Source: Escherichia coli (GTDB lineage Bacteria; Pseudomonadota; Gammaproteobacteria; Enterobacterales; Enterobacteriaceae). From it: a stretch of 64,000 bases of DNA. The stretch lies in the NCBI GenBank assembly GCA_025336685.1, contig GCA_025336685.1_4717.1; one strand, 5' to 3'. Positions 2,923 to 61,841 of this stretch are shown in pieces. The position numbers were made by a program, and so were the translations under genes. Positions within the stretch are counted from its first letter, which is position 1; each line of letters starts with the position of its first letter. A model generated the notes under the pieces. It searched no databases. It was given only the letters and a program-made list of their open reading frames with translations, and was not told where the DNA came from.

Positions 2923-2951
2923 CCTCCTCTGGGAATGGAACCCAGAGGAGG
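2923..2951. terminator. GC-rich hairpin (CCTCCTCTGGG / CCCAGAGGAGG, 11-bp stem, 7-nt loop)
   Basis: Perfect inverted repeat read directly; lies between convergent genes 1526..2770 (+) and 2964..3284 (-). No strong U-run, so terminator function is tentative. Confidence 0.4.
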
Positions 2952-5584: not shown

Positions 5585-5596
5585 ATAAACTCCTCC

Positions 5597-5623
5597 GATG
5601 GAGGGTGCCGAGCACCCTCCATC
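5597..5623 (-). promoter_or_regulatory. stable hairpin (11-bp stem GATGGAGGGTG / CACCCTCCATC) abutting the terminase RBS
   Basis: Perfect inverted repeat; on the minus-strand transcript it sits directly 5' of the GGAGGAG SD of terL, between the 579 aa gene and terL. Confidence 0.4.
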
Positions 5624-5634
5624 GTTGTATTACC

Positions 5635-14040: not shown

Positions 14041-14090
14041 CCTTCCTTCCCCGGCCTTGATGGCTAGGGAAGGAAGGTTTATGGTTTATT
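14041..14090. terminator. bidirectional intrinsic terminator (stem CCTTCCTTCCC / GGGAAGGAAGG, loop CGGCCTTGATGGCTA, then TTTATGGTTTATTT; A9 run on the other side)
   Basis: Read directly; sits between convergent genes 13125..14015 (+) and 14090..14629 (-). Confidence 0.75.
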
Positions 14091-16560: not shown

Positions 16561-16662
16561 CTTTTAAATTCCTACTTAACAATAAAGTTTATATACGGCG
16601 TATGTATCCGTAGAATAATGAGTTCTGGTAAGATCTTACATCAAAATGACGGCATAAAAAGT

Positions 16663-16690
16663 ACCTCCTTACCCATGTGGGTAAGGAGGT
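16663..16690 (-). terminator. hairpin terminator (ACCTCCTTACC / GGTAAGGAGGT) followed on minus strand by T5
   Basis: Read directly; downstream of the minus-strand gene 16842..17651, inside a 280-nt non-coding gap. Confidence 0.55.
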
Positions 16691-23744: not shown

Positions 23745-23770
23745 GCCTTAATTCTGTTTACATTGAAGCC

Positions 23771-37724: not shown

Positions 37725-37740
37725 TATTCACTGCATAAAC

Positions 37741-37772
37741 CCCTCTCCCTTCCCTGATGGGTTGGGAGAGGG
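37741..37772. terminator. hairpin (CCCTCTCCC / GGGAGAGGG, loop TTCCCTGATGGGTT) between convergent genes
   Basis: Read directly; paralogous to the hairpin at 50601..50633. Confidence 0.5.
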
Positions 37773-37778
37773 AATATG

Positions 37779-38846
37779 TTAACCTAATGTCACCGTAGGT
37801 AAATCAGGATAAAGTTTCTTCAAGCCTGCCATCGTGGTGGTAGTTGTATAATTCTTACCCATCACAGCAAGAGATGCATATTTCTTACTGCGGGAGAAAA
37901 GGGAATAAAACCCACTGGATGTTTCCATCCACATCGTGAGGAGTTCTGCGTCGTTACCGTGATAGTTCGTTTTACCCCATCCAGGTTTAAACGCATCGGC
38001 AAAATCAATTAAACGCGATGCTTCGGCGTCGTATTCTTTAAGGGTAATGTACGATGGGATACGGTAGTTACGAAACAACAACGTAATGAGTTCAGGGACA
38101 ACGCTACGAGCGCGTTCAGCCGTAATGAGTTCGGTGATAACGGCAGCCGTACGGAAATCGCCGTTGAGGCCAACGCTGCTTAACGATTCCGCTAAAGTGG
38201 TTGCCATCGCCACTTTATCCTCCGCTGACCCAGAGTCATACAGACTACGTACATCGATATAGTTGCCTGCTAATGCGGCTTGACGAATCAACGACGTGAC
38301 AACCGTCCGGTTCGTCTTATAGTCGTTGTAGCTGAATTCGGTTCGCGTTTTCCCTTGATCGTCGAGATACCGATCGACAATCGTTGATAGTTTATAATAC
38401 TCATCGCCCGACATCAGACTATCGAGGAGCTTAACGTTTCCATCTTTATCGATAAGCTTCCCTAACGCACCATTGGATTGTTGGTTAATGGTGCTGTAAA
38501 TCTGATCTTTTACTTGCGATAGGATGTTATCAGTCGACGATATATTCAGACCAGTAACATCTTTGATCTTATTCATCAACGCGTTTTCATTCAGGGAGAT
38601 TTTGCCTCCGCTGATATCGATGAAAGAATTAAGATCGCTTATGGAAATCAGGTTTCCTGTTAACGCCGATAATGTACTATTGATACTGTTCGTAATACTG
38701 CTACGAAAACTGGTTAACGCATCCGCGGCCGAAACAGCGGTACCGCTAACCGCTTTAAGGAGCGTGTCGCGCCCTGTCGAAAAATCGCTGGTGATGGTTT
38801 TGATCTTGGACGTATCTATACTCGGCAGTTTGTCGTAAAGACTCAT
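37779..38846 (-). CDS. hypothetical protein (about 355 aa)
   Basis: ORF track gives 38897 as start, but that extension runs through the 38886..38911 hairpin; ATG at 38846 has an AGGAGG SD 5 nt upstream. Confidence 0.5.
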   Translation of the reverse strand: MSLYDKLPSIDTSKIKTITSDFSTGRDTLLKAVSGTAVSAADALTSFRSSITNSINSTLSALTGNLISISDLNSFIDISGGKISLNENALMNKIKDVTGLNISSTDNILSQVKDQIYSTINQQSNGALGKLIDKDGNVKLLDSLMSGDEYYKLSTIVDRYLDDQGKTRTEFSYNDYKTNRTVVTSLIRQAALAGNYIDVRSLYDSGSAEDKVAMATTLAESLSSVGLNGDFRTAAVITELITAERARSVVPELITLLFRNYRIPSYITLKEYDAEASRLIDFADAFKPGWGKTNYHGNDAELLTMWMETSSGFYSLFSRSKKYASLAVMGKNYTTTTTMAGLKKLYPDLPTVTLG

Positions 38847-38885
38847 CACGTCCTCCTGAAAAAGAAAAAAGAAATACGGCATAAA

Positions 38886-38911
38886 GCCTACCCACACAAT
38901 GGTGGGTAGGC
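38886..38911 (-). terminator. hairpin (GCCTACCCAC / GTGGGTAGGC) followed on minus strand by a T-rich run
   Basis: Read directly; downstream of minus gene 38929..39486. Confidence 0.5.
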
Positions 38912-38928
38912 TAAGATCAACATCGATG

Positions 38929-39486
38929 TTAAACTTCTTCGTTTTCTGAACCTAATGATTCAGCATCTGGATCGTCAACAGGAATTGTTGCGTCAAAATA
39001 CCGTTTCGTATGCGTGGTCGTATATCCTACACTATCTGTGATGGAAATCGTAAACGTGACTTCTCTCGCACGGATTAAGCGTAGTTTATTCATGAAGTTA
39101 CGGAACGGCATCGATCCCCGATTCAACTCCTTAATGACGTTTCCTCGAATACTGGAAATGTCTTTATTCGTTTTATCAGGATGTCGTTTCTTCACATCAC
39201 GCATATGTCGGGTAATATACGAATTGAGCTGATTTGCGCCGATCCCTCTCTCCGTATAAATCTGCAACAGGAACTCCGTAAGGAAATCCTGTCTACCCGT
39301 AGGCGTCCAGAAATTGTTACCGTGATTGTAGTTAGTCGCTCGTCCTCGATTACTTTGAGGATTTTCATCATCGTTTTCGTCACAACGCTTAAGCGGATTA
39401 ATGCGTGCTCGGAAAGAGACTTCATTATATTTATTTGTCATAATACACCAGTGTACTGACTGAGTGCGAAGGTTAGGAGTTCGCAA
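38929..39486 (-). CDS. hypothetical protein (185 aa)
   Basis: ORF track. Confidence 0.45.
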   Translation of the reverse strand: MRTPNLRTQSVHWCIMTNKYNEVSFRARINPLKRCDENDDENPQSNRGRATNYNHGNNFWTPTGRQDFLTEFLLQIYTERGIGANQLNSYITRHMRDVKKRHPDKTNKDISSIRGNVIKELNRGSMPFRNFMNKLRLIRAREVTFTISITDSVGYTTTHTKRYFDATIPVDDPDAESLGSENEEV

Positions 39487-39953
39487 CAGTCTCTCGCTAG
39501 TTTCCTTGTTTTGCGTAATCCATAAGCCGCATCCAAATCGTCACGTTCTGCCAGCGCGTCTAACCACGTCGCAAGTATGCGTCCATACTCGATAACGTCA
39601 CGCATGAGAACGTCGAACTGGATAACACGACCATCGGCATCAGCAAGCCAACGATTGAATGTGATTTGTGGTGCTAGTATTGCATATGTTCTCTCCTCTA
39701 ATGCTATTATGTTTATGTTGCCTTCGTTATCGAACGCTTGATGCCAACGGCGAAGGTCAAGCATCAACGACTCAGCGTCCATATACCACAACGGTAAATA
39801 CGTTTTACGTGCAACGCGTATATCGTAGATGTTGTGAACCCAGGACGTTGTTTTATAAAGCAACAAGAGTTCGTTTAACCGTTGCCTATCATCTTGAAAC
39901 GTCTTCCTTTTATAACGTTGGAATGCACGCCTCAAGAAAAAGCGATGTAACAT
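39438..39953 (-). CDS. hypothetical protein (171 aa)
   Basis: ORF track; CTATATTAC motif about 90 nt upstream. Confidence 0.45.
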   Translation of the reverse strand: MLHRFFLRRAFQRYKRKTFQDDRQRLNELLLLYKTTSWVHNIYDIRVARKTYLPLWYMDAESLMLDLRRWHQAFDNEGNINIIALEERTYAILAPQITFNRWLADADGRVIQFDVLMRDVIEYGRILATWLDALAERDDLDAAYGLRKTRKLARDCCELLTFALSQYTGVL

Positions 39954-40044
39954 GGCATCACCTATGTATCATTCTTGCAGGCATCAATGAAACCATCACA
40001 AGAAGGTAACGTTATACGTCGCCTCCATGACAGTCATCATGAAG

Positions 40045-40053
40045 GTAATATAG
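40045..40053 (-). promoter_or_regulatory. promoter-like motif GGNCTATATTACC (copy 3)
   Basis: Exact CTATATTAC on minus strand upstream of the 39953 start. Confidence 0.3.
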
Positions 40054-40086
40054 TCCTGTTATTTTTTTCAATACGGAGAATGTAAA

Positions 40087-40716
40087 ATGAGCGAATACGG
40101 TGTTGTCCCCGTAGATGATGAACCGCAAGAGGCACCCGATAAATTCGAGGTCCGTCTTGACGAAACCCGTAATATCCGTCAACGATTTATTCAACGTCTT
40201 GAAATGCTGTTAGATAGCGAATTCAAAGATTTTGAGCGTAACCCCGGTGTAGATAATAAAGCCATTGTTGACGTCGAAAACGTCGACCGAATAGGTAAGC
40301 TGTTGTTGAAATCGTTGGGTGATAACGATAAAGTCGACTTAACGTTGAAACGTATCAGCGCCGACCAGGCTATGAACGACAGCGCATTGAAAACAGCACA
40401 GGCCCTAACCGAAACCATGCTGCGCCGCTTAGGTCAGATAGATGAACATCCTCTCGCAGCAGGGGCTGTTTACGATGGCGAAGTCGTGAAGTCAGTTACG
40501 CCTGAAGAACGCGATCGTCGACTTGGTTTTGCATCGTTGGAAGAGTTTAATAGCAAGGAGTTTTCACCAGGCGTTCTCATCCAGGGACGTGTCGAAGAAA
40601 CCAGTGATGCTTTCTACGCTAGAATGGCTCAACTGACGGAGTCGGTTCGTGAGGAGGTGTCTCAGAAGATGGCTGCAGATCATCAGTCTTCGGAGGCGTC
40701 ACACGAGGAGGAATAA
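40087..40716 (+). CDS. acidic hypothetical protein (209 aa)
   Basis: Lone plus-strand ORF in a minus-strand block; very Asp/Glu-rich; 3' end overlaps the convergent 40619..41407 ORF by about 100 nt. Confidence 0.45.
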   Translation: MSEYGVVPVDDEPQEAPDKFEVRLDETRNIRQRFIQRLEMLLDSEFKDFERNPGVDNKAIVDVENVDRIGKLLLKSLGDNDKVDLTLKRISADQAMNDSALKTAQALTETMLRRLGQIDEHPLAAGAVYDGEVVKSVTPEERDRRLGFASLEEFNSKEFSPGVLIQGRVEETSDAFYARMAQLTESVREEVSQKMAADHQSSEASHEEE

Positions 40717-41407
40717 AATAACTGAACCATTTTATCCCAAAGAACCGCATGAACATCACGGGTGCGTTAGAAAGTTCGATTGCTTCGTAAAGTTTGTCAT
40801 AAGCCAGATCGGAATCAGGGATGGTTTCGCTGATTCGTCTGGCGACAACCAACACGTTACAAATCGGATTATCTTCTAACAACATCTGATTGGGGAGGTG
40901 CCAGCGTTTGAAATCGTAAAAGAACATCGCGTTATACGTCTTACGGATTTCTGATGGATGCAGTGTGGCCGGATGACGGTAAATAATCTCGACGCTATCT
41001 TGCGCACCGAGGTATTGCTGAATACCTTCTTTTAACGCGGTCGCTGCATCTCCCACAAATTCAAACGGGTACGTATTCACGTGAACCGAAAAATCCGGCG
41101 TAGCAATCCCCGTTAAGCGGTCTTTCATGTAATCCGCGACCACATAACACAGCCGCCACATCAACTCCGTCGGGATGCATTTATCGAGAATGGTTTCGTC
41201 GATATTTGCCATCGCGTCCTTAAACTCTTCGTAAGTATAAGTAACGCCCGCCTGCTTCTCCGGCTCCAGGTTATAGGGTCGGTAATGCCATTTCTTCCCC
41301 CACTTTCTGATAGCCTCCGGATCCAACGTTGTTGCTACCGCCATTTCGATATCAAGCAGTGCTTCGAGTTCTACGTACACCGTCACCAATGCTACACTTC
41401 CAGTCAT
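40619..41407 (-). CDS. hypothetical protein (262 aa)
   Basis: ORF track; Pro/Thr-rich C-terminal tail lies in the overlap with 40087..40716. Confidence 0.45.
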   Translation of the reverse strand: MTGSVALVTVYVELEALLDIEMAVATTLDPEAIRKWGKKWHYRPYNLEPEKQAGVTYTYEEFKDAMANIDETILDKCIPTELMWRLCYVVADYMKDRLTGIATPDFSVHVNTYPFEFVGDAATALKEGIQQYLGAQDSVEIIYRHPATLHPSEIRKTYNAMFFYDFKRWHLPNQMLLEDNPICNVLVVARRISETIPDSDLAYDKLYEAIELSNAPVMFMRFFGIKWFSYFIPPRVTPPKTDDLQPSSETPPHEPTPSVEPF

Positions 41408-41409
41408 TG

Positions 41410-42111
41410 TTACTCTCCAGCTTCACCGGTTAACATCTGCATATCGGGAGACGTTTTAATTTTCTTCTCGTACTCTTTTGTTTGTTTGAATACCAATTCA
41501 CCGATTTCTTCCAATTCTTCAACGGTGACGGTATGCAAATAAAGCAGCGGAATAATCCAGGTATTCGCACGAAGCATGTCCTGAATATCGTCAACGGTGG
41601 GTAACTCCGTAAAGAACTGTTCGTCTACCGCAAATAAATCCCGTGCGATACCATCCACCAGTTTATGATCGCTTTCATGGATCCATGCAAAACTTTCAGC
41701 AAGATGGTCAACAAGCATACTGATGTCATCGTCCGTTGAGAACACCGTACGACGAACGTGTGTTGTGAGGTCCATCGTAAAACCCATTAACGAAGGGGTT
41801 TCTTCAGAACGGAGTTCACGCCAAAGACGAAGCATGTTTTCGGGGATAAACAAATCATGGATGAACGTTACGCTGAATTTCGTAATCCAATCACGAATTG
41901 TCGCACCTCTGGAATACTGTTGCGGTGGAGAATACAAATACACCCAACGTTTCGTAAACGCGATAACTTCCTTTCGCATCGCCGCATCTAAAACAAGCAC
42001 GTAACGATCGGAAGCAAGCTCTTCTAACAAAAGCTCGAACGATGTATCGCTCTCTGGGGAGAACGATCGTTTTATTTCTGCGATACGTCGTGATAGCCGA
42101 CTACGTAACAT
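41410..42111 (-). CDS. hypothetical protein (233 aa)
   Basis: ORF track. Confidence 0.5.
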   Translation of the reverse strand: MLRSRLSRRIAEIKRSFSPESDTSFELLLEELASDRYVLVLDAAMRKEVIAFTKRWVYLYSPPQQYSRGATIRDWITKFSVTFIHDLFIPENMLRLWRELRSEETPSLMGFTMDLTTHVRRTVFSTDDDISMLVDHLAESFAWIHESDHKLVDGIARDLFAVDEQFFTELPTVDDIQDMLRANTWIIPLLYLHTVTVEELEEIGELVFKQTKEYEKKIKTSPDMQMLTGEAGE

Positions 42112-42113
42112 AA

Positions 42114-42788
42114 TTAGCCCTCATCAAGGTTATTCTGGAGATGCATTGCGGTGAGAATAACACCAACTGCCGAAACCGATTTTGCCTTGCTGTCTTCGGG
42201 TAGCTGTTCCAAGCTTACGGTACCTGTTTCTAACAGCATGCGGTTCATCGCGTTGAACTTCTTATCGTCGCCACCACGAGCCTGCATTAACTCTCGGTTC
42301 ACGTTCGGCATCGATCGTCCTAACGTCGCTTGCATTTCCGGCTGACTCCAAGTGGAACCTTTACTATCACCCGTCGGCTGATTGGTGAGCTGGTCCTTGG
42401 TGTTGTTGTTTTTCGGAATCGATATTTTAGCACTCAACGTTTCGGCTTGTCGGCGGTTTGGAATCAGGTACAATCTGGTTGGACGATCACGAAGCACCAA
42501 TTGTCCTGTTTTCTGATCGGTGAGATAAACGCGTTGGAAGAAAGGGAAACCGTATTTCTTGCCGACTTCCAGTGCGCGTTTTATCGTCACCTCGTTTTTG
42601 TTCATATTGGGTACCCAGATGGGTAGAATCTCTTTCTTATCCCGACATAAACGCATATACGCATCAAACGTCTCATCATCGATTTCAGCAAAACGTTTTT
42701 TGTAAATAGCGTAGGTCGGACTCGATCCCCCCACCAGGTCTTTGATATACCCAAGAATGAATTTTTCTGCTGCAGCGCGGTTGGACAT
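42114..42788 (-). CDS. hypothetical protein (224 aa)
   Basis: ORF track. Confidence 0.5.
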   Translation of the reverse strand: MSNRAAAEKFILGYIKDLVGGSSPTYAIYKKRFAEIDDETFDAYMRLCRDKKEILPIWVPNMNKNEVTIKRALEVGKKYGFPFFQRVYLTDQKTGQLVLRDRPTRLYLIPNRRQAETLSAKISIPKNNNTKDQLTNQPTGDSKGSTWSQPEMQATLGRSMPNVNRELMQARGGDDKKFNAMNRMLLETGTVSLEQLPEDSKAKSVSAVGVILTAMHLQNNLDEG

Positions 42789-42797
42789 AAACGTCTC

Positions 42798-43139
42798 CTA
42801 TTGTCGTGTCTGTTGCGGAAATACCCGAAACACCTGGACGATGATGTTCTTGTCCTCGCGATTGGCGATGTCGATCATGTGTTTTGTTCCAGGACTTTTG
42901 AAATCCCAGAACGCAACTAGATGCGTAATGACATCGCCCATCCACTCGTTGCGTCTGAATCCAGCACCTTTACGATAAGGGCCATCCCAATCGGCAGGAA
43001 ACGTAGTGTATTTAAACCCGTAATCCTTCGCATAGCGGCGCACATGCAAATCAGCACCTGAACGCGCACCGCCAGCAATGAGATGAACTTTGTCGTGAGG
43101 GAGGTTATGTAACATCTGGTTCATACGCTTTTCGAACAA
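42798..43139 (-). CDS. DUF2493 (SLOG-superfamily)-like protein
   Basis: 113 aa; HLIAGGARSGADL...FPADWDGPYRKGAGFRRNEWM...LVAFWD matches the remembered DUF2493 pattern GGAxGAD...FPADW...AGPxRN...AF. From memory. Confidence 0.45.
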   Translation of the reverse strand: MFEKRMNQMLHNLPHDKVHLIAGGARSGADLHVRRYAKDYGFKYTTFPADWDGPYRKGAGFRRNEWMGDVITHLVAFWDFKSPGTKHMIDIANREDKNIIVQVFRVFPQQTRQ

Positions 43140-43192
43140 GGGATAATCATCCCAGTAGCGTGATCCTGATACCCCTACACGATAGGGTTCGC

Positions 43193-43513
43193 TTATCTTC
43201 CACCGCGCAATGACTTTACGTTGCGTGCAATAAAGGGTGCAACGTAATCACGGAAATTATGGATCCATCCTTTAATGGGTTGATTGTCTAGTAAGCACTC
43301 TCGCACCGAGAACGTACTTACTTCTAGTACACCGAACTGCAATCGCCAATAACGATTGATTTCGGCTTGGGCGTGTTCTAAAGTCATGTACTCAGGAACA
43401 CGAGCCAGCAGATCGTGTTTAAATTGCTCGGCAATCGCTGGCTGATGCGATGCAATTGTCTGTGCGATAACATCAACCAGTTCGTGCGCGTGCTTGATAG
43501 CAGGTGCGGTCAT
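43193..43513 (-). CDS. hypothetical protein (106 aa)
   Basis: ORF track. Confidence 0.4.
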   Translation of the reverse strand: MTAPAIKHAHELVDVIAQTIASHQPAIAEQFKHDLLARVPEYMTLEHAQAEINRYWRLQFGVLEVSTFSVRECLLDNQPIKGWIHNFRDYVAPFIARNVKSLRGGR

Positions 43514-43525
43514 TTATTCAGCCTT

Positions 43526-45016
43526 TTATTTTTTGCTTGGACGATTTAATGCAGGTACCGGGTTCTTTGGTTGCTTTGTCTTTTCATCCATCCAGTACGG
43601 GAAGTACTCACCGGTACGCATACGCAATAAGTCCATTGTGGACAAGAACGGTAGCGGGTTAGGATCATCCAGATATGTCCAGTAACCGCGTGTGTTTAAC
43701 AACACATCCCAATCGAATCCTTTTGCTTTAAGATCGTCGTACAGTTCCTGCGGGGTGCAATACAATTGCGGATTTTCGTAAACCTCTTGACGCCAGAGAT
43801 TATGCATCTGACATAGCTCCGACGTAATTTCCAGAGCACGCTGTAAATACTCATCTTCTTCGCAGAGGGAACGAATGGTTGTGCGCTGTAACGCAACATC
43901 CGGATAAATATCCAAATACACCGTTGAAGCACCATCAGCTGACTTACCACCTGATGCATGCATACCCCAACCACGCATCCAATCTTTATCACGTAGGTAG
44001 TGGTATTCTGTTAATGATGGTTTAACCCCCTCGCTCTGACTAACCACAATCGGGAACGGTAAGCCGGTGGGTCCGTTTTTAGCACGCATGTTGAAGACTT
44101 GGATCATCTGTAGATCGGTATCACCGATAAGGTTATCACCAGGTCCACGCGGATAAAGAACGCGTTTATCGGTGTTCTGAAGAATCGTCAGTTTATCGAT
44201 TTTCCAGAGGTTATTCGTATAAAACGTGAAGCGTTCCGGGACGTTCTTAAACTTCTCATCGCCCTTAAACCCTTTCAGTTTTCGTACCGGCTGCTGTCCT
44301 GGCATACCACCAACGTTTACACCGTCACCGAGGTGGGCGGTCATGGTAATGTAGATACCAGCTGACGCTGTGAGTACCGGCATCTGTGATAGAATCTGGC
44401 TTTTCGCTGCTGCCGAACGCATCGCTTCAGCATTCAGTTTTGCACCACCTGCGGTTTCTTTATCAAACAGTGCGTCAACGGCATCGATTGGTAATCCAGA
44501 GAAACTGTCGATGAGTACGACGGTCGGTAACCACCAGGTATAGTTCTCACCATGTTTATTAATGAACGGAACAGCTTTGCGTTGGGATTTATCTTTGACC
44601 TTGTCGTCACGGAATTTCTTAATCGCATCAAACCAAATGTTACCACTCATCTGAACAGCATCGGTGATAAACACACGTTCTTCTTCGAAAAGATCGACAC
44701 CCGCGATATTAGACATGTTCATCGCAAGCGTTAAGATACGTGTTGTCGTTAACGACATTTCTGTATCGTAAACGCTACTATTGCTGTTCGCGTAACGATC
44801 AATAACACGTAACAAGCGAAACATTATGAACGTGGTTTTGTTCATGTTGCCGCGAGCGCCTGCGCCCTCAACAAGCATCATACCGCCGTTACAAATGCTT
44901 TCACCGTGTTTACCGACATAGTACCGACCACCAGATGTGGGAATATCCATTAAGCAACCAATGTTGAGATTAAAACGCATCTCTTCACCGGGAGAAAGGT
45001 ACTTATTAAGATTCAT
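43526..45016 (-). CDS. RecA-fold ATPase (RecA/UvsX- or DnaB-like) with non-canonical P-loop
   Basis: 496 aa; P-loop-like VEGAGARGNMNKTTF (NK instead of GK); Walker B-like VVLIDSFSGLPIDAVDAL; ETAGGAKLNAEAMRSAAAKSQIL resembles the RecA segment GDSHMGLAARMMSQAMRKL. Confidence 0.4.
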   Translation of the reverse strand: MNLNKYLSPGEEMRFNLNIGCLMDIPTSGGRYYVGKHGESICNGGMMLVEGAGARGNMNKTTFIMFRLLRVIDRYANSNSSVYDTEMSLTTTRILTLAMNMSNIAGVDLFEEERVFITDAVQMSGNIWFDAIKKFRDDKVKDKSQRKAVPFINKHGENYTWWLPTVVLIDSFSGLPIDAVDALFDKETAGGAKLNAEAMRSAAAKSQILSQMPVLTASAGIYITMTAHLGDGVNVGGMPGQQPVRKLKGFKGDEKFKNVPERFTFYTNNLWKIDKLTILQNTDKRVLYPRGPGDNLIGDTDLQMIQVFNMRAKNGPTGLPFPIVVSQSEGVKPSLTEYHYLRDKDWMRGWGMHASGGKSADGASTVYLDIYPDVALQRTTIRSLCEEDEYLQRALEITSELCQMHNLWRQEVYENPQLYCTPQELYDDLKAKGFDWDVLLNTRGYWTYLDDPNPLPFLSTMDLLRMRTGEYFPYWMDEKTKQPKNPVPALNRPSKK

Positions 45017-45114
45017 TGGGTAAAAACTCCTTCGATTCTTCGACTAATTCTTAGTGTTCAGAGAATAACTATTTTTAGTTAAGACTGACAACCACTATTT
45101 CCACGAGGACCATC

Positions 45115-45957
45115 ATGCATAAATTTACCATTCCTGAAGACCCGATTACACTGCAGACCCTTTGGGATTCTCATCGTGCTCTATCAATGGAAGGCTTTGC
45201 GCAAGACTTCGCTTCACTTACCGCAGTAACGAATCTTCGTAGTATGTTTACTAACGGTAAGAAGTTCGTTACCGATTGGCTTAAAAAACGTGATGTGACG
45301 GTTTATCCTAAAGTCTTCGATGACCTCGATACCATCTTTAGCAACAACGCATACAGCGATCTCATTGGGTATCGTGCTTTTATTCCGAATGGTTTAAATG
45401 CACCGATGTCAGATTATGTTGTTGCTCTAACCCAGAGCCTGGATAGCGTAATTGGCACCATCCTACCCGATTTAGATAAATTGACCGTAACGTGCGCTAA
45501 AGCCGTCAATGACGTCAACTTCCGTCGTAGTAGTGGTATGGCTCAAACGCTACCTAAAAACGACCCAGAGAACGTTTTAGAGACGTTACGTGCGATGTTC
45601 AAACGTGGGACGGTAACACAGACCACTGTAGGTCGTGCATATAAGAACGAAGACGATATCCGTCAGATCGGAAAAGATCTGGATGCTTCCCGCATCCGTG
45701 CGCTCGACGTTAATCCTAAAGACGTGAAGAAAGCAATCGAACGTTTCATGGAAGTGGCTGACCGCTTAACCGAAATCCTGGTTCAAGACTACAATGAGGG
45801 TGCGGTGAGCAACGCGATGATTCGCGATATTAGTGACGCTATCTACCAAACAGCCAAGCAGGCTGAACTGTATGCGTTTCTCGTGAACGCTTTGGCTGAG
45901 GCGATCATTGCATATAACGACACTTGGGACGCTGTTAAAAAGAACGCGAAAAAATAA
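45115..45957 (+). CDS. hypothetical protein (280 aa)
   Basis: Lone plus-strand ORF between minus-strand genes; hairpin terminator immediately downstream. Confidence 0.5.
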   Translation: MHKFTIPEDPITLQTLWDSHRALSMEGFAQDFASLTAVTNLRSMFTNGKKFVTDWLKKRDVTVYPKVFDDLDTIFSNNAYSDLIGYRAFIPNGLNAPMSDYVVALTQSLDSVIGTILPDLDKLTVTCAKAVNDVNFRRSSGMAQTLPKNDPENVLETLRAMFKRGTVTQTTVGRAYKNEDDIRQIGKDLDASRIRALDVNPKDVKKAIERFMEVADRLTEILVQDYNEGAVSNAMIRDISDAIYQTAKQAELYAFLVNALAEAIIAYNDTWDAVKKNAKK

Positions 45958-45964
45958 CATAATA

Positions 45965-46016
45965 ACCCACCCTACTACCCCGTTAAGGGCGGTAGGGTGG
46001 GATAAGGTTTATTTGC
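45965..46016. terminator. bidirectional terminator (CCCACCCTAC / GTAGGGTGGG then ATAAGGTTTATTT)
   Basis: Read directly, between convergent genes. Confidence 0.55.
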
Positions 46017-46440
46017 CGTATAGTTGTACCACTCGTTGTGTCGTAGGAACGCAGACTCTTACCAGAAGCTTTTTAATCTCCTGACGAATCGTTGTTTTAT
46101 CATCATAATAAAGCCATGGTGGAACGCGCTGCATTATGCACTGCACCGCTTCATCGTAGTTTGTCGTCCCATTAAGTAACGTCTCACTATCCAGATCTTT
46201 CCATGCAGTAATACCAAGCCGCGCAGCAAACATCAACGCCGAAACCGACTCAGCTATCTCCAATCGCTCATTCATATCCGCAAGACCTTTTAGCATGACG
46301 TAATTATCGTCATGTTGGTGCAAGGTACCAAACAAACTTCCGAAGAGAAGTATACGTTTAGCTTTTGCGGTTAAGAAGAACGATAGGAGAGCGTGTTTCA
46401 ACGGTTGTTTCTCACGTTCTACCTGTTCGACCATCACCAT
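46009..46440 (-). CDS. hypothetical protein (143 aa)
   Basis: ORF track. Confidence 0.45.
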   Translation of the reverse strand: MVMVEQVEREKQPLKHALLSFFLTAKAKRILLFGSLFGTLHQHDDNYVMLKGLADMNERLEIAESVSALMFAARLGITAWKDLDSETLLNGTTNYDEAVQCIMQRVPPWLYYDDKTTIRQEIKKLLVRVCVPTTQRVVQLYGK

Positions 46441-46537
46441 TGATTACTCCAACACATAACGTGGGTTACTGTATATGTTAGCCCATATACCAACGTCGTC
46501 TCCCGACTCAATAATCACAGCGAAACGAAACGCAACA

Positions 46538-47980
46538 TCAGACTCGCGATATGTTACCGCGTACGCTTTCGTTTCCGGCGATGCTAAATAGCTCAAGTTC
46601 AGACGTTGAGGCAGGTCTAACCCTACGACATGGTACAAGACGTAACACCCTGCTTATCGGGGTCAGTCTGTAATTCACGTCCACCTTCAAGCTTTTCGTA
46701 ACCTGCGTAATCGCACTATGCACTTTGGTAACCGTTTTACCTTTCTTATCCTTTTCTGTTTCGAAAAGAACGTCGGTAATTTCGGTTACGACCAGACGCG
46801 GTGTGGATTCGCGGTTAGCGTCAAGCCATTCATCCAGTAACGTCTTTAAGAAGTTCAAGGAATCAATCGCACGCCAAGCAAGGTTAGGCGGATTGCATGC
46901 TTCCATTAAAATGGCTGTGTTCGATCCACCTAGCGGAAGATGCACGCTCTTACCGAGGCCTGTCGGACGCATCGTAAGATCGCACTCACCCTCAAGAATA
47001 TCGCGATGATGTTGACGATGATGAAGGTTATCCGTGTATGCGATATACACTGACTCCGTTGTCCCATGCTCTAATACCCGAGATGCATGCGTACGCATAA
47101 TCTCAATAGCATCATCCGGCTTGCTTAAATAGATAACACTGTACGCGCTATCGCTAATCCTTTTCCCTAACTCAAGACGTCCCTTGTTGTCTTTATCGGT
47201 GTTACCACCGAAATAGATGTAGCGACCATCTTTCGCACGCTCTTGCTGCTGATTGGTGGTAAAGTAGCAGCGCGAGAACGTAAAGAACGGACTTATTTCC
47301 GGTTCGGGACTCCAATACCCCTTAGCCGGAAGTTCGCGACGTATTTGGGTTCTTACAGCCCAGTCCTGGTTTTGTGATAGATATGTTCCACGCGTTGCCA
47401 ACATATCCGCACGTTCGTTACCAACATTGCCCTCATGTCCAGGAACGTAACGCAGCGAAATATCGATAGCGTCGCGCTTCGCATCCCTTATCGCACTATC
47501 GAGTTTCCGCCACCGTTCCGCATTCATTAACGGTTTATTGTCGGATTTAACCCAGTTGTTCTCTCGCCAGTTAGCAAGATGGTTGGTGGCACCTACAACA
47601 ACATATTGGCTGTCCGACAACAGCTGGATCCGTTTTGCCCCCTTTGCTTTTCCAAGTTCAATCGCACGTATTGCAGCATCCAACTCAGCCTGATTGTTCG
47701 TTACGTTGAAACCCAAAGCCTCTAACTCATCCACGTATTCCTTGGGTTCGACCAGCACAGCGTCTTTAGGAAAGTTGAGTTTAGGGTCAACATAACCGTA
47801 TTGTGTTGGTTTGGGCTTTCCACTTTTTGAAGGTTCCAAGGTGCCTTTTATTTCTTTCACCATATCGTAGGTGTAGCCATGCACGCCATAGCCACCATAC
47901 CCACTCGATGTTGGACGGGATCCTCCATCACAGTAGAAAACGGCACCAAGCTCAGTATTTCCTGCCATTGTAAACCTCAT
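46538..47980 (-). CDS. RNase H domain protein with about 290 aa C-terminal extension
   Basis: N-terminal residues match the RNase HI catalytic layout: YCDGGS (Asp), NNQAELDAAIRA (Glu), LSDSQYVV (Asp), NWRENNW, PGHEGNVGNERAD (His/Asp). Confidence 0.8.
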   Translation of the reverse strand: MRFTMAGNTELGAVFYCDGGSRPTSSGYGGYGVHGYTYDMVKEIKGTLEPSKSGKPKPTQYGYVDPKLNFPKDAVLVEPKEYVDELEALGFNVTNNQAELDAAIRAIELGKAKGAKRIQLLSDSQYVVVGATNHLANWRENNWVKSDNKPLMNAERWRKLDSAIRDAKRDAIDISLRYVPGHEGNVGNERADMLATRGTYLSQNQDWAVRTQIRRELPAKGYWSPEPEISPFFTFSRCYFTTNQQQERAKDGRYIYFGGNTDKDNKGRLELGKRISDSAYSVIYLSKPDDAIEIMRTHASRVLEHGTTESVYIAYTDNLHHRQHHRDILEGECDLTMRPTGLGKSVHLPLGGSNTAILMEACNPPNLAWRAIDSLNFLKTLLDEWLDANRESTPRLVVTEITDVLFETEKDKKGKTVTKVHSAITQVTKSLKVDVNYRLTPISRVLRLVPCRRVRPASTSELELFSIAGNESVRGNISRV

Positions 47981-48018
47981 TAATCATTGTCCGTATGATA
48001 GCCCAAAGTTGTACGGTA

Positions 48019-48570
48019 TTACCGATTACCGTCAGTTGACGTTGGTTGATTGCGATCGATTTTCATTGACCGTAATTTTCCACCATTAGTTACACACTGA
48101 TTGCGCTGTTCGACGGAGGCCAGACTGTTACAGACATAATAAGTATCGATAAAACGCTCAACGCGTTCTTGAAACTTCCTCCTGGCAACTTGCTCTTTTT
48201 CAAAAGTTTGTAACGCGCGATCGACCTCACCTTGGAGAATCCGGTTCTGTTCAACCATACTGTCGATTAAACGGCCTCGCACTTCGTTCGATGTGTAGAG
48301 TTGATGAATCAGTTCTCGGTTGGTGTCTCGCGCATAGCGCAATGTTGTATTTTCCTGACGTAAACTATTCGCCTCAGCCATCAAGGTAAAGATTTTTTCG
48401 CCAGCAAATAACGTCACGATACCCAGCACGATGAAAAAACCCGTAATCAAGAATATCGAGGACTGTCGAGCTCCATCTCGACGATAGCGTGTGGGTGGTC
48501 GCTTACTTCGCCGAAACAACTCGCGAAGAAAAGGGAAAAGCCAGGGCAACGCCTTGAGTGTAGTAAACAT
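48019..48570 (-). CDS. membrane protein with N-terminal TM helix and coiled-coil region
   Basis: ORF track extends to 48861, overlapping plus ORF 48589..49965; internal Met at 48570 gives a protein with TM segment IFLITGFFIVLGIVTLFAG then heptad-like helical sequence. Confidence 0.4.
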   Translation of the reverse strand: MFTTLKALPWLFPFLRELFRRSKRPPTRYRRDGARQSSIFLITGFFIVLGIVTLFAGEKIFTLMAEANSLRQENTTLRYARDTNRELIHQLYTSNEVRGRLIDSMVEQNRILQGEVDRALQTFEKEQVARRKFQERVERFIDTYYVCNSLASVEQRNQCVTNGGKLRSMKIDRNQPTSTDGNR

Positions 48571-48588
48571 GCGTGTGTCCTTGATAGT

Positions 48589-49965
48589 ATGAAATTTCCA
48601 ATACAACTTAACCGAGGACGTCGAATGATTAGTATTTTTGGTTTTTATACGTACAAAGGGTACGCTAATAACCACCCAAAAACCACGGCGAAATTCGGTG
48701 AGTTCAGCCAGCATAGTGCTACGTTCAGTCGCGAGATCGGCATCTATACCAACACGGCGTACGCACGTACGACCCTGCTGGTATTGAATGCAGAAAACGA
48801 AGCTGGTGAAGCACAAACGCTGGATGACAACACCGCAAATCAGATTCTTCAGGTTGGTCAATGGTTGCTGGAAAAAGCCTCATCGGGCGAAATCCAGGAT
48901 GACAGAGACCAGGTTATCAGCTACCTAAAAGACGACTTCACAACGTATTTGGATTCTATCGACATCCCGACACCCACCACCGATGGGAAAGTCTATCTAC
49001 CGGCGTGGATCAGTTTCAAGATAACCGCCACGGGTGATGTTGTCAAGATATGGCTGTCTGATAGCGTATTCCAAAGTCAATATCCAAAATACGAATATGA
49101 AGTCGTTCCTCCTGTTCCTAAGGATCAGTTAGACACCTTCTTCGAAGATCTGGCAACGTTGAAGAAACTGGTTGACAGTCGAAGCAGCGAGAAACTGACC
49201 GAAGAAATCAACGAGGTGCGCGACCAATTCCCAGACACACAATTGTGGACGAAAACCTATAAAGCGTACGATTACACCGACGATTCGAAGTACATTGATA
49301 CCGATTGGACGGTGATTATCTACGGTGCAGCAGGTAACAATATTGATAATATCAAGGAGTTCCTGCAAAACTGGATTCTTAGCAATAGTACGCATGGACG
49401 CCCAGACTGGGAAATCGTTCTGCCTGATCTTTTTATTCCGACAGAACACATCTTCATCCCAATCTGGAACCGCCACAGCGCTCCGGAGATGACCAATCAG
49501 GCACGTATTTATAGCCCCATCTTCGATGATTCGTTGATGGATACCTACCTGAAAAACTTTGCTGATGGTTACGGTGAAACCGCCGAAGTCCGTAAATCGC
49601 TTCAAGCGGTGCCGACGCTGTGGCGTTCGATCGGTTTCTTAAGTGTTGGTAACTCACGTAACCGTGATGGTAAACTTAAGTTCTACGATCGTTGGCCGCA
49701 ATACGCACTCATCAGCACAACCAGCATCGATATTAACCGTATCGACGACGCGACACGTGAATTCATCACGTTCACTTACGAGATGCTGAAACTGGCGGAA
49801 TCGCTCACTGAAGACGACCCGGTACCGTTGGGTTATAGTCGTGTTACGCGTGGTAGCAATAACTTCTTAGCGAAAAGCCACAACGATGTTCAGTATCTCT
49901 TCTTAACAAAAGAAGCGTTCCTGAAGAAAATGCCGGATGAAGCCGACACACCTGTTGGAGGTTGA
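48589..49965 (+). CDS. hypothetical protein (458 aa)
   Basis: ORF track; 4-nt ATGA overlap with downstream 49962..50594. Confidence 0.55.
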   Translation: MKFPIQLNRGRRMISIFGFYTYKGYANNHPKTTAKFGEFSQHSATFSREIGIYTNTAYARTTLLVLNAENEAGEAQTLDDNTANQILQVGQWLLEKASSGEIQDDRDQVISYLKDDFTTYLDSIDIPTPTTDGKVYLPAWISFKITATGDVVKIWLSDSVFQSQYPKYEYEVVPPVPKDQLDTFFEDLATLKKLVDSRSSEKLTEEINEVRDQFPDTQLWTKTYKAYDYTDDSKYIDTDWTVIIYGAAGNNIDNIKEFLQNWILSNSTHGRPDWEIVLPDLFIPTEHIFIPIWNRHSAPEMTNQARIYSPIFDDSLMDTYLKNFADGYGETAEVRKSLQAVPTLWRSIGFLSVGNSRNRDGKLKFYDRWPQYALISTTSIDINRIDDATREFITFTYEMLKLAESLTEDDPVPLGYSRVTRGSNNFLAKSHNDVQYLFLTKEAFLKKMPDEADTPVGG

Positions 49966-50594
49966 TTATGGCTGTAACACGCATGACGCCAAGTCCCGGT
50001 GCGGTCGGGGTATTCACAGTATCCGCGCCGTTCACCGTTGGTGCGTCAACGCTTTATACCGTCACAGCGTTGCGTAGATTCAGTGAAGTTATTGGTAGCG
50101 GAATCGATCTATTTAAGGAACTGTACGAACCGTTATCGATAGACAAATCCACATTCGATGCGCATCTCGAAGCGAATGCTTATCTCGTTACGCTGCAACC
50201 GGATTACGGTGCGCCCGTACTGGTACCTGATACGTATATCACGTCGTACCCAAAGAACGATTCGTTGCGGTATCGTCGCATTATTCTGGGTATCGATTTC
50301 GGGCCTCTTCCTCCAGGTCTTGACCTTTCGTATTTAACAACGATATTGAAAGGTAAGGCCAGTGATATTCTTGGTGTCGAACCTGAAGTTAAAATAATGG
50401 AAATCACTCTCGATGATACCGTTACTCAGGAACAACATCAGATAAACGAAGCCCGTCGTCAGGCTGCGATAAAAGAGCGAGATACCATTTACGCGCGCTG
50501 TGAAACGCAAGAGAAGCAGATAACAGCTTTACTTGCAACCCAAAAGCAACTTATCAAATTGCTTCAGGACGCCGGAATCAATCCAACACCTTAA
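49962..50594 (+). CDS. hypothetical protein (210 aa)
   Basis: ORF track; followed by hairpin terminator. Confidence 0.5.
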   Translation: MIMAVTRMTPSPGAVGVFTVSAPFTVGASTLYTVTALRRFSEVIGSGIDLFKELYEPLSIDKSTFDAHLEANAYLVTLQPDYGAPVLVPDTYITSYPKNDSLRYRRIILGIDFGPLPPGLDLSYLTTILKGKASDILGVEPEVKIMEITLDDTVTQEQHQINEARRQAAIKERDTIYARCETQEKQITALLATQKQLIKLLQDAGINPTP

Positions 50595-50600
50595 CATATT

Positions 50601-50640
50601 CCCTCCTCCTTCCCATGTTGGGTTGGAGGAGGGTTATGCC
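50601..50640 (+). terminator. hairpin (CCCTCCTCC / GGAGGAGGG, loop TTCCCATGTTGGGTT) after plus gene
   Basis: Read directly; paralog of 37741..37772. Confidence 0.5.
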
Positions 50641-50647
50641 GTCAAGC

Positions 50648-50695
50648 AAAAAAAAAAAAAATGATAGCCACGGACCCTCCAATGAAGGAGGGTCG
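50648..50695 (-). terminator. intrinsic terminator for minus strand (hairpin GACCCTCC / GGAGGGTC followed by T14)
   Basis: A14 run at 50648..50661 on plus strand is a T14 on the minus strand directly 3' of the hairpin, downstream of gene 50707..51411. Confidence 0.7.
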
Positions 50696-50706
50696 TGACC
50701 GTCAGT

Positions 50707-51411: not shown

Positions 51412-51422
51412 AAGGTTCCTTC

Positions 51423-51857
51423 TTATGTTCTAATATGCACATCGTCAATCCCCTCGGTAATCCAGCCGATGGGAAGGACAATCGTTGTTATCGTGTTATG
51501 GGTGTAGGGATTAAGAAAATGGAAATAGTAATTTTTGTTAGACTGTTCAATGCGTAGCTCGAGCTGCGCATCTTCAGGTAACCGTAACCAAGCACCGTAC
51601 AGCTCATTAAACTTACGCTGAATTTTACCCGGGTTCATTGGAACCCTACGACCACGGTGGCGTAGCTGACGTAATGATTCAATCAAACACTCAGAGATAC
51701 CCATTACCGTTCCGTTATCGCTTGCATCAATAACGATGAACTCATGTGACCCGCGACCATGATAGAATCCAGCAACAAGCGCAACGGCGACAACGACAAC
51801 CGTACCGATACCTACGTACCAATAGTAAACGTCCATAACAGCCTCACTTATGCCCAA
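51423..51857 (-). CDS. membrane protein, N-terminal TM helix (144 aa)
   Basis: Hydrophobic segment VGIGTVVVVAVALVAGF near N-terminus. Confidence 0.45.
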   Translation of the reverse strand: MGISEAVMDVYYWYVGIGTVVVVAVALVAGFYHGRGSHEFIVIDASDNGTVMGISECLIESLRQLRHRGRRVPMNPGKIQRKFNELYGAWLRLPEDAQLELRIEQSNKNYYFHFLNPYTHNTITTIVLPIGWITEGIDDVHIRT

Positions 51858-52423: not shown

Positions 52424-52476
52424 AAGAAAAAACGATATAAAGCAAGGTCCTCTGATATCAGAGGACCTTGGATCAA

Positions 52477-53133: not shown

Positions 53134-53164
53134 GATTGAAATCTCGCTGGCTTGCTTCACCTAG

Positions 53165-54110: not shown

Positions 54111-54140
54111 AGCCTGTCCTTCGGGGCAGGCTTTTATGCT
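54111..54140 (+). terminator. rho-independent terminator (9-bp stem, UUCG tetraloop, then TTTTATGCTGTT)
   Basis: AGCCTGTCC-TTCG-GGGCAGGCT followed by a T-run, 7 nt after the stop codon. Confidence 0.8.
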
Positions 54141-54206
54141 GTTAAATATCAGGAATAAGAATTAACAAAATAGGAAAATGGTGTGAATATAACACAAAGG
54201 AGGGAG

Positions 54207-54334: not shown

Positions 54335-54748
54335 ATGTCTGCATTAGTGTATGACGAGAAATCGTCGAGGCCCCCGTCTTCACGAGGGCCAACACCTATG
54401 CGCGACTATTTACCATCTACGAAACAAAGGGTTATAAACATGAGCAATTTGAATGTTGAATTTACTTCAACAACGCCCGTCATGAATGGCGTTGGTACTG
54501 AAACTAAGATCGTATTAGAACCCATCCCGGGGTTACGTGATCTCGGTGATTTTTACCAACTGATGCCACGTATACGTAACGCCTTAAACAGTATCGATCT
54601 TGATTCTGATAAAGATTTCCAACACGATACAGAAAATACCGATCATGTGTTGCTACCATCAGGGATCGGAAAATTCACCTACACGCAAACATTGAAAGCC
54701 TCCGATGGTGAAATCCGTCGTTTTATTGTTGAAGTAGAAAGCGCATAA
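54335..54748 (+). CDS. hypothetical protein (137 aa)
   Basis: ORF track; followed by hairpin 54753..54784. Confidence 0.45.
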   Translation: MSALVYDEKSSRPPSSRGPTPMRDYLPSTKQRVINMSNLNVEFTSTTPVMNGVGTETKIVLEPIPGLRDLGDFYQLMPRIRNALNSIDLDSDKDFQHDTENTDHVLLPSGIGKFTYTQTLKASDGEIRRFIVEVESA

Positions 54749-54752
54749 AAAC

Positions 54753-54784
54753 CATCCTCCCAACCCGTAAGGGAAGGGAGGATG
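54753..54784. terminator. hairpin (CATCCTCCC ... GGGAGGATG with inner CCC-GTAA-GGG) between convergent genes
   Basis: Read directly; T5 on the minus-strand side. Confidence 0.5.
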
Positions 54785-54801
54785 AAATATGCCGTTATAT
54801 G

Positions 54802-61789: not shown

Positions 61790-61841
61790 CCTCCTTCCCC
61801 GGCCTTGGTGGCTAGGGAAGGAGGATTATAGTTTATTTATT
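61790..61841. terminator. bidirectional intrinsic terminator (CCTCCTTCCC / GGGAAGGAGG, loop CGGCCTTGGTGGCTA, then ATTATAGTTTATTTATT)
   Basis: Read directly; near-duplicate of the 14041..14090 element, including the loop and T-rich tail. Confidence 0.75.

Follow-up and report, generated by a model that had tools for sequence, protein, structure and literature searches.

The stretch of DNA analysed here (hereafter, the window) comprises 64,000 nucleotides of a genome assembly labelled Escherichia coli (NCBI GenBank GCA_025336685.1, contig GCA_025336685.1_4717.1) and comes from a close relative (~95%) of Goslar, a jumbo phage of E. coli (Chimalliviridae). In a megablast search with positions 36000-52000, the sole match was Escherichia phage vB_EcoM_Goslar (95.4% identity), and the entire window is collinear with positions 186.2-237.3 kb and then 1-12.5 kb of this nucleus-forming phage, the genome of which is 237 kb long. 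The gene map was built from the open reading frames (ORFs) of the window checked against the Goslar annotation. A sequence-only reading of the window had singled out two hairpins, at 37741-37772 and 50601-50633, and both are indeed present. It placed each of them just after the last gene of a plus-strand block, a description that is correct for the upstream gene but incomplete, because a converging minus-strand gene also ends at each site: stop codons at 37724 (+) and 37779 (-) flank the first hairpin within a gap of 54 nt, and those at 50594 (+) and 50707 (-) flank the second within a gap of 112 nt.

Both elements are two-tiered. In the 37741 hairpin, an outer stem of 9 bp (CCCTCTCCC/GGGAGAGGG) is separated by a TT/TT internal loop from the inner CCC/GGG stem, which is capped by TGAT; in the 50601 hairpin, the outer stem (CCCTCCTCC/GGAGGAGGG) leads through the same internal loop to an inner stem of CCC(A)/(T)GGG, and the apical loop is variable. 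The apical loop measures 4-5 nt in the two elements. The 14-15 nt TTCCC...GGGTT centre, previously described as the loop, has the reported sequence but is not a loop, as it holds a 3-bp CCC/GGG helix past the 2x2 TT/TT internal loop. The minimum free energy of the RNA fold is -27.4 (+) and -26.8 (-) kcal/mol for 37741 (z -4.9 and -5.2) and -28.3 (+) and -27.3 (-) kcal/mol for 50601 (z -6.1 and -5.8), with 0 of 200 shuffles being as stable on either strand; pairing of one arm with the other dominates the fold (ensemble frequency 0.36-0.93). No U-tract (at least 5 U in 8 nt) follows the stem at either site, where the tails read AAUAUG, GUUUAUG and UUAUG.

The layout shared by the hairpin family to which they belong, with the flanks aligned by eye, is CATAA(A), hairpin, (T/A)TATG(YYGT), often in the form TATGCCGT, and the common denominator of the family is this directional tail 3' of the stem rather than any likeness to Shine-Dalgarno (SD) sequences. 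In the window, TATG occurs within 12 nt past the stem on 15 of 23 transcribed sides versus 0 of 9 non-transcribed sides (background probability 0.022, binomial P 7e-20) and is found on 12 of the 14 sides of convergent junctions. The same asymmetry holds throughout the Goslar genome, which we assembled whole from its record for genome-wide counts: 34 of 54 transcribed versus 2 of 24 non-transcribed sides carry the tail (Fisher P 5e-6), as do 4 of 38 hairpins inside genes. The distance from the stem to TATG is 1-8 nt, which places the G of UAUG 4-11 nt past the stem. It is TATG, not a U-run, that stays constant, the two-way sites having UUUAUG on one side and AAUAUG on the other. An unbiased search for k-mers enriched in intergenic DNA recovered TATGCCGT (5 of 7 copies intergenic), TATGTTA, AGGAGG and CCCTCC.

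These features closely resemble known transcription terminators of related phages. In phiKZ, 133 termination regions have been mapped by Oxford Nanopore Technologies (ONT)-cappable-seq (Putzeys et al. 2024, PMC10914365); 61 of the terminators share the motif BCCYCCCCHWWDGGGRRGGBYTTATKYYGT, described as a stem-loop followed by TTAT, and six of the regions, located between convergent genes, are bidirectional (PMC10914365). In 201phi2-1, 132 termination sites have been mapped, 15 of them bidirectional; the main motif A resembles that of phiKZ, motif B lengthens the hairpin, and several of the terminators were active in vivo in a terminator trap (PMC11512511). Like the phiKZ motif, the window pair combines a pyrimidine-rich 5' arm with a purine-rich 3' arm (CCYCC..GGRGG) and has a TATG-type tail directly after the stem, the plus-strand tail of 50601 (TTATGCCGT) being an exact instance of TTATKYYGT. 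The minus-strand tail of 37741 (GTTTATGCAGT) matches the published YTTATKYYGT with 1-2 mismatches, and AATATGTTAA, common to the plus-strand tail of 37741 and the minus-strand tail of 50601, keeps only the TATG part. As in phiKZ, the elements lie at the 3' ends of transcription units and are bidirectional between convergent genes, in the same phage family and with the same RNA polymerases; phiKZ-type RNA polymerase beta subunit genes are annotated in the Goslar record both inside the span of the window and elsewhere, as are the nuclear shell protein and PhuZ, these assignments being transferred from a 95%-identical genome. The convergent junctions of phiKZ itself show the order CATAA-palindrome-TTATG, for instance, at 25214, with GCCCTCCC attgc GGGAGGGC flanked by ATTATGTTT and TTATGCTGT, and a scan for hairpins with such a tail in phiKZ 1-50 kb returned 29 instances versus 1.1 in shuffles, 20 of them with pyrimidine-rich 5' arms. 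The exact geometry differs. The phiKZ stems are 7-10 bp long with a 4-nt loop (8-nt arms in the published motif), whereas the copies of the Goslar lineage have two tiers, an outer stem of 9 bp being joined through a 2x2 internal loop of AA or TT to an inner CCC/GGG stem closed by a tetraloop, and their tail on one side is often AAUAUG as opposed to UUUAUG. The likeness to 201phi2-1, compared by description, extends to the hairpin motif and the bidirectional sites; 201phi2-1 infects Pseudomonas, and reports on it mention no AACCC-GTAA-GGGAA core.

The 37741 and 50601 elements, whose structure, strand symmetry, position, directional tail and conservation are directly observed, are thus probably bidirectional, factor-independent terminators for the phage's own RNA polymerases. 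Most likely, they represent a Goslar-lineage, two-tier variant of the chimallivirus terminator, a signal type that is already known and ordinary for this phage group. They resemble canonical bidirectional Rho-independent terminators in having a GC-rich hairpin between convergent genes and A-rich 5' and U-rich 3' flanks that mirror each other. Unlike these, they lack the 5-8 nt U-tract, UAUG(YYGU) being the conserved part, and the polymerase they serve would be the split multisubunit enzyme of the phage, operating inside the phage nucleus.

Termination itself and the mechanism of release are inferred for the phage of the window; RNA 3' ends have been mapped to this motif in phiKZ, and the mapped terminators of 201phi2-1 are reported to have a similar one. 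Transcripts arriving from either side of the palindrome would fold into the same ~32-nt two-tier RNA hairpin, and each would then, 1-8 nt past the stem, run into a brief stretch rich in A and U that ends with UAUG(YYGU). The strong rG:dC hybrid formed by the 3' purine arm would abruptly give way to a weak, U/A-rich hybrid as the hairpin forms, and the two events together could release the phage multisubunit RNA polymerase. The phage nucleus excludes host proteins such as Rho, and therefore reliance on intrinsic signals, that is, factor-independent termination, would be needed. Transcription in the nucleus is strictly uncoupled from translation (PMC12908238).

Several points weigh against this interpretation. 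In the literature searched, there are no RNA 3'-end data for Goslar-like phages, so that termination is assigned by homology of the signal, and ONT mapping of 3' ends, as performed in phiKZ, does not by itself distinguish termination from 3' processing. Each of the two elements has, on one side, an AAUAUG tail with no U-run, and a simple intrinsic-terminator scan calls neither 37741 nor 50601; indeed, the usual terminator predictors appear to miss these hairpins because they seek a U-tract. One Goslar copy of the family, at 174267, is devoid of TATG on both sides. Finally, TATG is also the start motif of phiKZ late promoters, and the tail could have a second role.

The ambiguity of mapped 3' ends leaves room for a different view, namely, that transcription runs on past the hairpins, which would then serve as 3'-end protection or processing elements, with exonucleases trimming the RNA back to the hairpin and the mRNA being stabilized. 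The hairpins are very stable (-23 to -28 kcal/mol), 3'-end sequencing in both phiKZ and 201phi2-1 is blind to the difference between termination and trimming, and Goslar encodes a 3'-5' exoribonuclease. However, blocking an exonuclease requires no downstream sequence, and yet TATG(YYGT) is enriched on transcribed sides only and is conserved across genera; moreover, run-on transcription at convergent junctions would lead to collisions with the opposing gene and to RNA antisense to it, and 201phi2-1 terminators of the same type worked in the terminator-trap assay. We consider this possibility unlikely.

Excess over random expectation is pronounced. Taking as strong hairpins those with a mismatch-free stem of 9 bp or more, 5 or more GC and a loop of 3-20 nt, we counted 14 in the window, compared to a mean of 1.68 +/- 1.38 (maximum 5) in 100 dinucleotide shuffles, and 13 of the 14 are intergenic although intergenic DNA makes up 6.2% of the window. 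A scan for hairpins followed by a TTAT/TATG tail identified 20 instances (1.5 in shuffles), with 5' arms of at least 70% pyrimidine in 15 of the 20 (0.1 in shuffles). This random-sequence control, the one on which the family proposed in the sequence-only reading had been staked, leads us to reject a chance origin, both counts being far above those of the shuffles. The hairpin-plus-tail scan replaced two simpler searches: the published 3'-arm-plus-tail pattern in fixed register gave 4 matches versus 2.4 expected, all of them true tails, a count that by itself is not significant because the spacing varies, and TTATKYYGT alone gave 11 versus 6.3 expected. No family matched when the whole window was searched against Rfam at gathering thresholds.

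The remaining hairpins of the window show the same association with gene ends (Table 1). All seven convergent intergenic junctions carry a strong palindromic hairpin (2923, 14041, 37741, 45966, 50601, 54753 and 61790); the genes of an eighth convergent pair (40087-40716 on the plus strand and 40619-41407 on the minus strand) overlap, and there is no hairpin there. Hairpins also occur in gaps between genes of the same orientation (5596, 15100, 16663, 21006, 35545, 38885, 52443 and 54111). Five or six of these sibling hairpins are already annotated as putative terminators in the Goslar record; to hairpins without annotation there, our analysis assigns a probable function. The other hairpins listed earlier (2923, 5597, 16663, 38886, 45965 and 54753) are all real, and a wider family at the ends of gene blocks does exist. 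Its proposed definition by CCTCC/GGAGG arms is too narrow, given that 38886 and 45965 are merely pyrimidine-rich and 5597 has the opposite polarity. The 54753 hairpin adds a third example of the TTCCC..GGGTT design, seen from the opposite strand (as AACCC-GTAA-GGGAA). At the 50601 junction, an additional hairpin (50673) is the first terminator met from the minus-strand gene ending at 50707 and is 5.5 kcal/mol more stable as minus-strand RNA; the A-run next to it, 13 to 17 A long depending on the genome, is the T-run past this hairpin for minus-strand transcripts. The non-transcribed side of the one-way hairpin at 38876..38912 has no tail. Three stable hairpins without TATG tails (ATGGGTGA..TCACCCAT, CTTCCTCGCC..GGCGAGGAAG and CCTGCCTGAT..ATCAGGTGGG) occupy the divergent intergenic region 28673-28782. 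The Goslar GenBank record both starts and ends within the 50601 junction: its two ends overlap by ~54 bp, and window positions 50608-50661 match both of them.

Table 1. Hairpins, tails and associated features (positions in the window unless Goslar is named; terminator denotes a putative function)
Position	Strand	Feature	Sequence or remark
37741..37772		Two-tier palindromic hairpin between convergent genes	CCCTCTCCC / TTCCCTGATGGGTT / GGGAGAGGG
37731..37740	-	Tail directly 3' of the 37741 stem	GTTTATGCAG; TATG begins 3 nt past the stem
37773..37782	+	Tail of the plus-strand terminator	AATATGTTAA
50601..50633		Two-tier palindromic hairpin between convergent genes	CCCTCCTCC / TTCCCATGTTGGGTT / GGAGGAGGG
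50591..50600	-	Tail	AATATGTTAA; overlaps the stop codon of the plus-strand gene
50634..50642	+	Tail	TTATGCCGT; exact match to the TTATKYYGT part of the phiKZ terminator tail
50648..50661		A14 run (T14 on the minus strand)	Between the two hairpins of the 50601 junction
50673..50694	-	Second hairpin of the 50601 junction	GACCCTCC/TTCATT/GGAGGGTC on the minus strand
54744..54795		Two-tier family, convergent genes	CATAAAAAC-CATCCTCCC-AACCCGTAAGGGAA-GGGAGGATG-AAATATGCCGT
14041..14077		Bidirectional terminator hairpin, convergent junction	Second paralogous family, centre CGGCCTTGATGGCTA; TTTATG and AATATG tails
61790..61824		Paralogue of 14041, convergent junction	Putative terminator in the Goslar record
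2923..2951		Bidirectional terminator hairpin, convergent junction	CCTCCTCTGGG/AATGGAA/CCCAGAGGAGG; CATAG and CTATG flanks
45966..46001		Bidirectional terminator hairpin, convergent junction	Minus-strand terminator in the Goslar annotation
38876..38912	-	One-way terminator between minus-strand genes	GCCTACCCAC..GTGGGTAGGC, then TTTATGCCGT and T-runs
16649..16690	-	One-way terminator between minus-strand genes	ACCTCCTTACCC..GGGTAAGGAGGT, then ACTTTTTATGCCGT
5596..5624	-	One-way hairpin of opposite arm polarity between minus-strand genes	Abuts the SD and start codon of the next gene
54111..54142	+	One-way terminator	AGCCTGTCC-TTCG-GGGCAGGCT, then TTTATGCTGT; G·U only on the plus-strand RNA; annotated terminator in Goslar
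52443..52470	-	One-way terminator	12-bp stem, tail CTTTATATCGTTTTTT; annotated terminator in Goslar
Goslar 4149, 15778, 27746, 36846, 48107, 49776, 61009, 63715		Copies of the two-tier family in Goslar, part 1	
Goslar 71990, 93445, 97885, 134586, 174267, 224384, 237246		Copies of the two-tier family in Goslar, part 2	
14052-14066, 61800-61814, 37750-37763, 54762-54775, 50681-50686, 35554-35556		Window segments with inverted centres	

The resemblance of the arms to ribosome-binding signals had suggested that every copy exposes an SD-like and an anti-SD-like strand, and it can be imagined that the CCUCC/GGAGG arms act in translation, by mimicking or sequestering the SD of neighbouring genes or the anti-SD of 16S rRNA. 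The arms are indeed SD-like and anti-SD-like, with a perfect UAAGGAGGU in the 16663 hairpin; GGAGG..N3-7..AUG resembles an initiation site; and the SD of the next gene abuts the 5596 hairpin. Nevertheless, the strands are not exposed, each arm being base-paired to the other in the predominant structure; transcripts reaching the seven convergent junctions have no further gene ahead of them and hence no SD to regulate; the siblings 38885 and 45966 have no CCTCC/GGAGG at all; phiKZ allows T in place of the G of TATG; and the orthologous junction of three phages of other genera (see below) retains the flanks with stems that are not SD-like and have reversed polarity. A role of the arms in translation is, accordingly, very improbable. 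We also rejected the related reading of GGAGG..ATG as a start codon or mini-ORF: the ORFs span 3 to 20 codons and are unconserved, and phiKZ has T at the G position. We regard the SD-likeness as a by-product of the purine-rich, GC-rich arms, and the CCTCC/GGAGG appearance is incidental, reflecting the preference of the Goslar and phiKZ lineages for pyrimidine-rich 5' and purine-rich 3' arms.

Conservation was assessed among four near-identical genomes, namely, the window, Goslar and two close relatives from IMG/VR (3300011560_000001 and 3300045988_173921), neither of which is identical to the window; the copies that we checked all occupy the same site in all four. The 37741 stem is invariant, as are the stems and the internal loop of 50601, the tail of which differs by one base in one genome. 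The apical loop of 50601 is different in each genome (ATGTT, TGTT, TGAT and ATTAC). The paralogy of the two hairpins asserted in the sequence-only reading is borne out, since the centre of the Goslar copy at the 50601 site is identical to the 37741 centre of the window. They are not just a pair: the family has three copies in the window and 15 in Goslar, where the copies conform to CATAA-[8-10 bp pyrimidine arm]-AA-CCC-GTAA-GGG-AA-[purine arm]-AATATG(CTGT), and three of these correspond to 37741, 50601 and 54753. The core AACCCGTAAGGGAA is identical in 8 of the 15 Goslar copies, 8 copies having the loop GTAA and 2 having GTGA. Both the loop and the unpaired AA/AA hardly vary and are thus more conserved than the paired arms, which differ by compensatory transitions (CCCTCCTCC, CCCTCTCCC, CCTTCCTCC and CATCCTCCC). 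Thirteen of the 15 copies have one orientation on the record. A second family, with the centre C-GGCC-TTGAY-GGCT-A, has three copies in Goslar and two in the window (14041 and 61790).

Selection on pairing is evident from the pattern of substitutions. The three two-tier sites of the four genomes provide 11 distinct sequences, in which 100% of the alignment cells are paired; in the alignment of the paralogues, 4 of 10 pairs changed on both sides, always from C-G to U-A, and none on one side, and the 50673 hairpin shows two double compensatory changes relative to Goslar (C-G to T-A and A-T to G-C). At the one-way sites 15100, 17690, 50673 and 54111, G·U pairs lie on the transcribed strand, where the hairpins are 4-9 kcal/mol more stable; at none of the one-way sites did we see a reverse strand preference exceeding 2 kcal/mol. 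The minus-strand one-way hairpin at 15088-15132 corresponds to a perfect 12-bp stem in Goslar (201274-201303); in the window, three G·U pairs have arisen on the transcribed strand and the loop has changed, so that pairing is kept only at the RNA level.

These observations bear on the notion that the palindromes are DNA-level elements, such as sites for a dimeric protein, cruciform or recombination sites, or mobile repeats akin to repetitive extragenic palindromic (REP) sequences, whose intergenic position is incidental. Goslar does contain 15 copies of a nearly identical palindrome, as would a REP-like family, with an almost invariant 14-nt core, and the recurrent inversions of the centres described below require DNA-level events at the palindrome. 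Set against this, changes in the outer stem preserve pairing and not sequence, G·U pairs at one-way sites are confined to the transcribed strand and tails to transcribed sides, and we saw neither transposases nor target duplications, although no search aimed at transposases was made; the inversions are an expected by-product of any inverted repeat. This notion is hardly credible as an account of the family.

Beyond the Goslar lineage, the convergent gene pair flanking 37741 has homologues in Erwinia phage Ea35-70, Salmonella phage SA002 and Proteus phage 10, with 20-24% protein identity, and the orthologous junction of all three reads CATAA-hairpin-(C)TTATGC(C/T)GT. The stems are unrelated (GGAGAGGGC.., GGCAGGGG.. 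and GGTAGCCC.., respectively) and have purine-first polarity. The orthologous junctions thus keep the layout with unrelated stems, and therefore the hairpin plus the tail is what is conserved; by the same token, we rejected arm polarity as an essential feature. Similar pyrimidine-first hairpins were found in Serratia phage Totoro and Klebsiella phage Miami, and the Miami copy is annotated as a terminator. A pattern scan of IMG/VR (CCTTCCCN{4,5}GGGTTGG) was too permissive and returned mostly unrelated matches; its sole use was to reveal extra copies in Goslar-like contigs. The conservation of the tail from Pseudomonas phages to those of E. coli, Erwinia, Salmonella and Proteus is consistent with a stop signal specific to the phage polymerase.

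The centres of several terminator palindromes are exact or near-exact reverse complements of each other among the four genomes, which are ~95-99% identical. The 14041 centre has one orientation in the window and 3300011560 and the inverted one in Goslar and 3300045988, whereas at 61790 the window groups with 3300045988 and Goslar with 3300011560. The 54753 centre (an exact reverse complement) and the 50673 loop are flipped only in 3300045988, and the 37741 centre only in Goslar; the 35545 loop, for which two genomes were compared, differs between Goslar and the window. This distribution points to recurrent, independent inversions, or possibly ectopic conversion, between the arms of inverted repeats. 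Inversions of hairpin loops are known at short inverted repeats, for instance, in quasipalindrome template switching and in the ‘flip-flop’ loops of chloroplast spacers. As in those cases, a segment between inverted repeats of the Goslar lineage has been recurrently reverse-complemented in close relatives. Unlike them, the inversions here affect what are probably functional two-way terminators of a double-stranded DNA phage, the function of which stays symmetrical.

The late promoters of phiKZ have the consensus TATG, with transcription starting at the G (PMC4666361). The TATG beside the stem might, accordingly, be a late-promoter start for the non-virion RNA polymerase, the whole constituting a terminator-promoter or hairpin-promoter module that would yield antisense RNAs at convergent junctions. 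In the divergent promoter region 10894-11036, TATGCCGT is found independently of any hairpin, and a start at the G at tandem sites such as 38885 would produce a sensible 5' untranslated region. On the other hand, TATG is present on 12 of the 14 convergent-junction sides though no gene lies downstream, its tight coupling to the stem (1-8 nt) suggests a single composite signal, the published terminator motif was derived from mapped 3' ends, and the characterized phiKZ promoter P119L has no upstream hairpin. The tails share with phiKZ late promoters the TATG on the non-template strand and differ from P119L in that TATG here lies past a terminator stem, even without a downstream gene. A promoter role of the tails is, in our judgement, quite improbable, and we retain the interpretation of hairpin and tail as a terminator.

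Several promoter-like motifs were noted along the way. The divergent region 10894-11036, between the structural operon and the tail-sheath gene, contains hairpin-free TATG(C) motifs (TATATGCCGT on the minus strand; GTTATGCC, CTATGAC and ATTATGTC on the plus strand), which are candidate late promoters of the phiKZ TATG type. The motif CTATATTAC is located upstream of minus-strand genes at 3285-3331, 15628-15762, 23696-23770, 39954-40086 and 53161-53282 (-) and is a candidate for the AT-rich early promoter consensus, recognized by the virion RNA polymerase, that is said to be present in every such jumbo phage; the 8-mers CTATATTA and TATATTAC are intergenic in 4 of 4 and 4 of 5 copies, respectively. 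A generic sigma-70 promoter scan of the window revealed no enrichment of promoter-like sites.

Because TATG is constant, the phiKZ core subunit GP123 binds non-template TATG and the unpaired core of the hairpins is more conserved than the arms, a further view is open, though we hold it as speculative: the non-template-strand pocket of the beta-like core subunit (GP123 in phiKZ) that recognizes TATG at late promoters may also read the TATG of the tails in the elongating polymerase, and the AACCC-GTAA-GGGAA core may bind a phage factor. If so, one four-base signal would start the chimallivirus RNA polymerase and, together with a hairpin, pause and stop it, and the factor could contribute to termination, to the protection of 3' ends or to the export of mRNA out of the phage nucleus. 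The enhanced crosslinking and immunoprecipitation (eCLIP) paper on ChmC reports no 3'-hairpin motif and describes binding near start codons, and thus lends no support to ChmC as the hairpin binder.

Current understanding is not overturned by these results. The CATAA-hairpin-TATGYYGT rule can be used to mark the ends of transcription units in the chimalliviruses of enterobacteria, now used as models for the phage nucleus, and compact two-way terminators are possible insulators in engineered phages. The recurrent inversion of the centres and the TATG common to start and stop signals are two points possibly worth following up.

Apart from the hairpins, the window differs from Goslar in several respects. 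A 1.6-kb insertion (22169-23788) is located within the RNA polymerase beta-subunit gene region. Its ORF 22484-23695(-) has NUMOD1, HNH_3 and I-TevI DNA-binding matches, on the basis of which its product is identified by sequence similarity as a homing endonuclease, and the 228-nt stretch on the 3' side of this ORF (22256-22483) has extensive secondary structure (-72 kcal/mol), suggestive of an intron. By contrast, the group I intron and gp206 of Goslar (about 211.8-213.8 kb) are absent from the window. Goslar gp203 (713 aa) corresponds to two overlapping ORFs, 35584-36141 and 36105-37724, and the tail-fibre gene gp204 (6.8 kb) to the two ORFs 28783-31479 and 31827-35534, separated by a 347-nt ORF-free stretch; these splits could be due to a frameshift or stop, a sequencing error or real pseudogenization.

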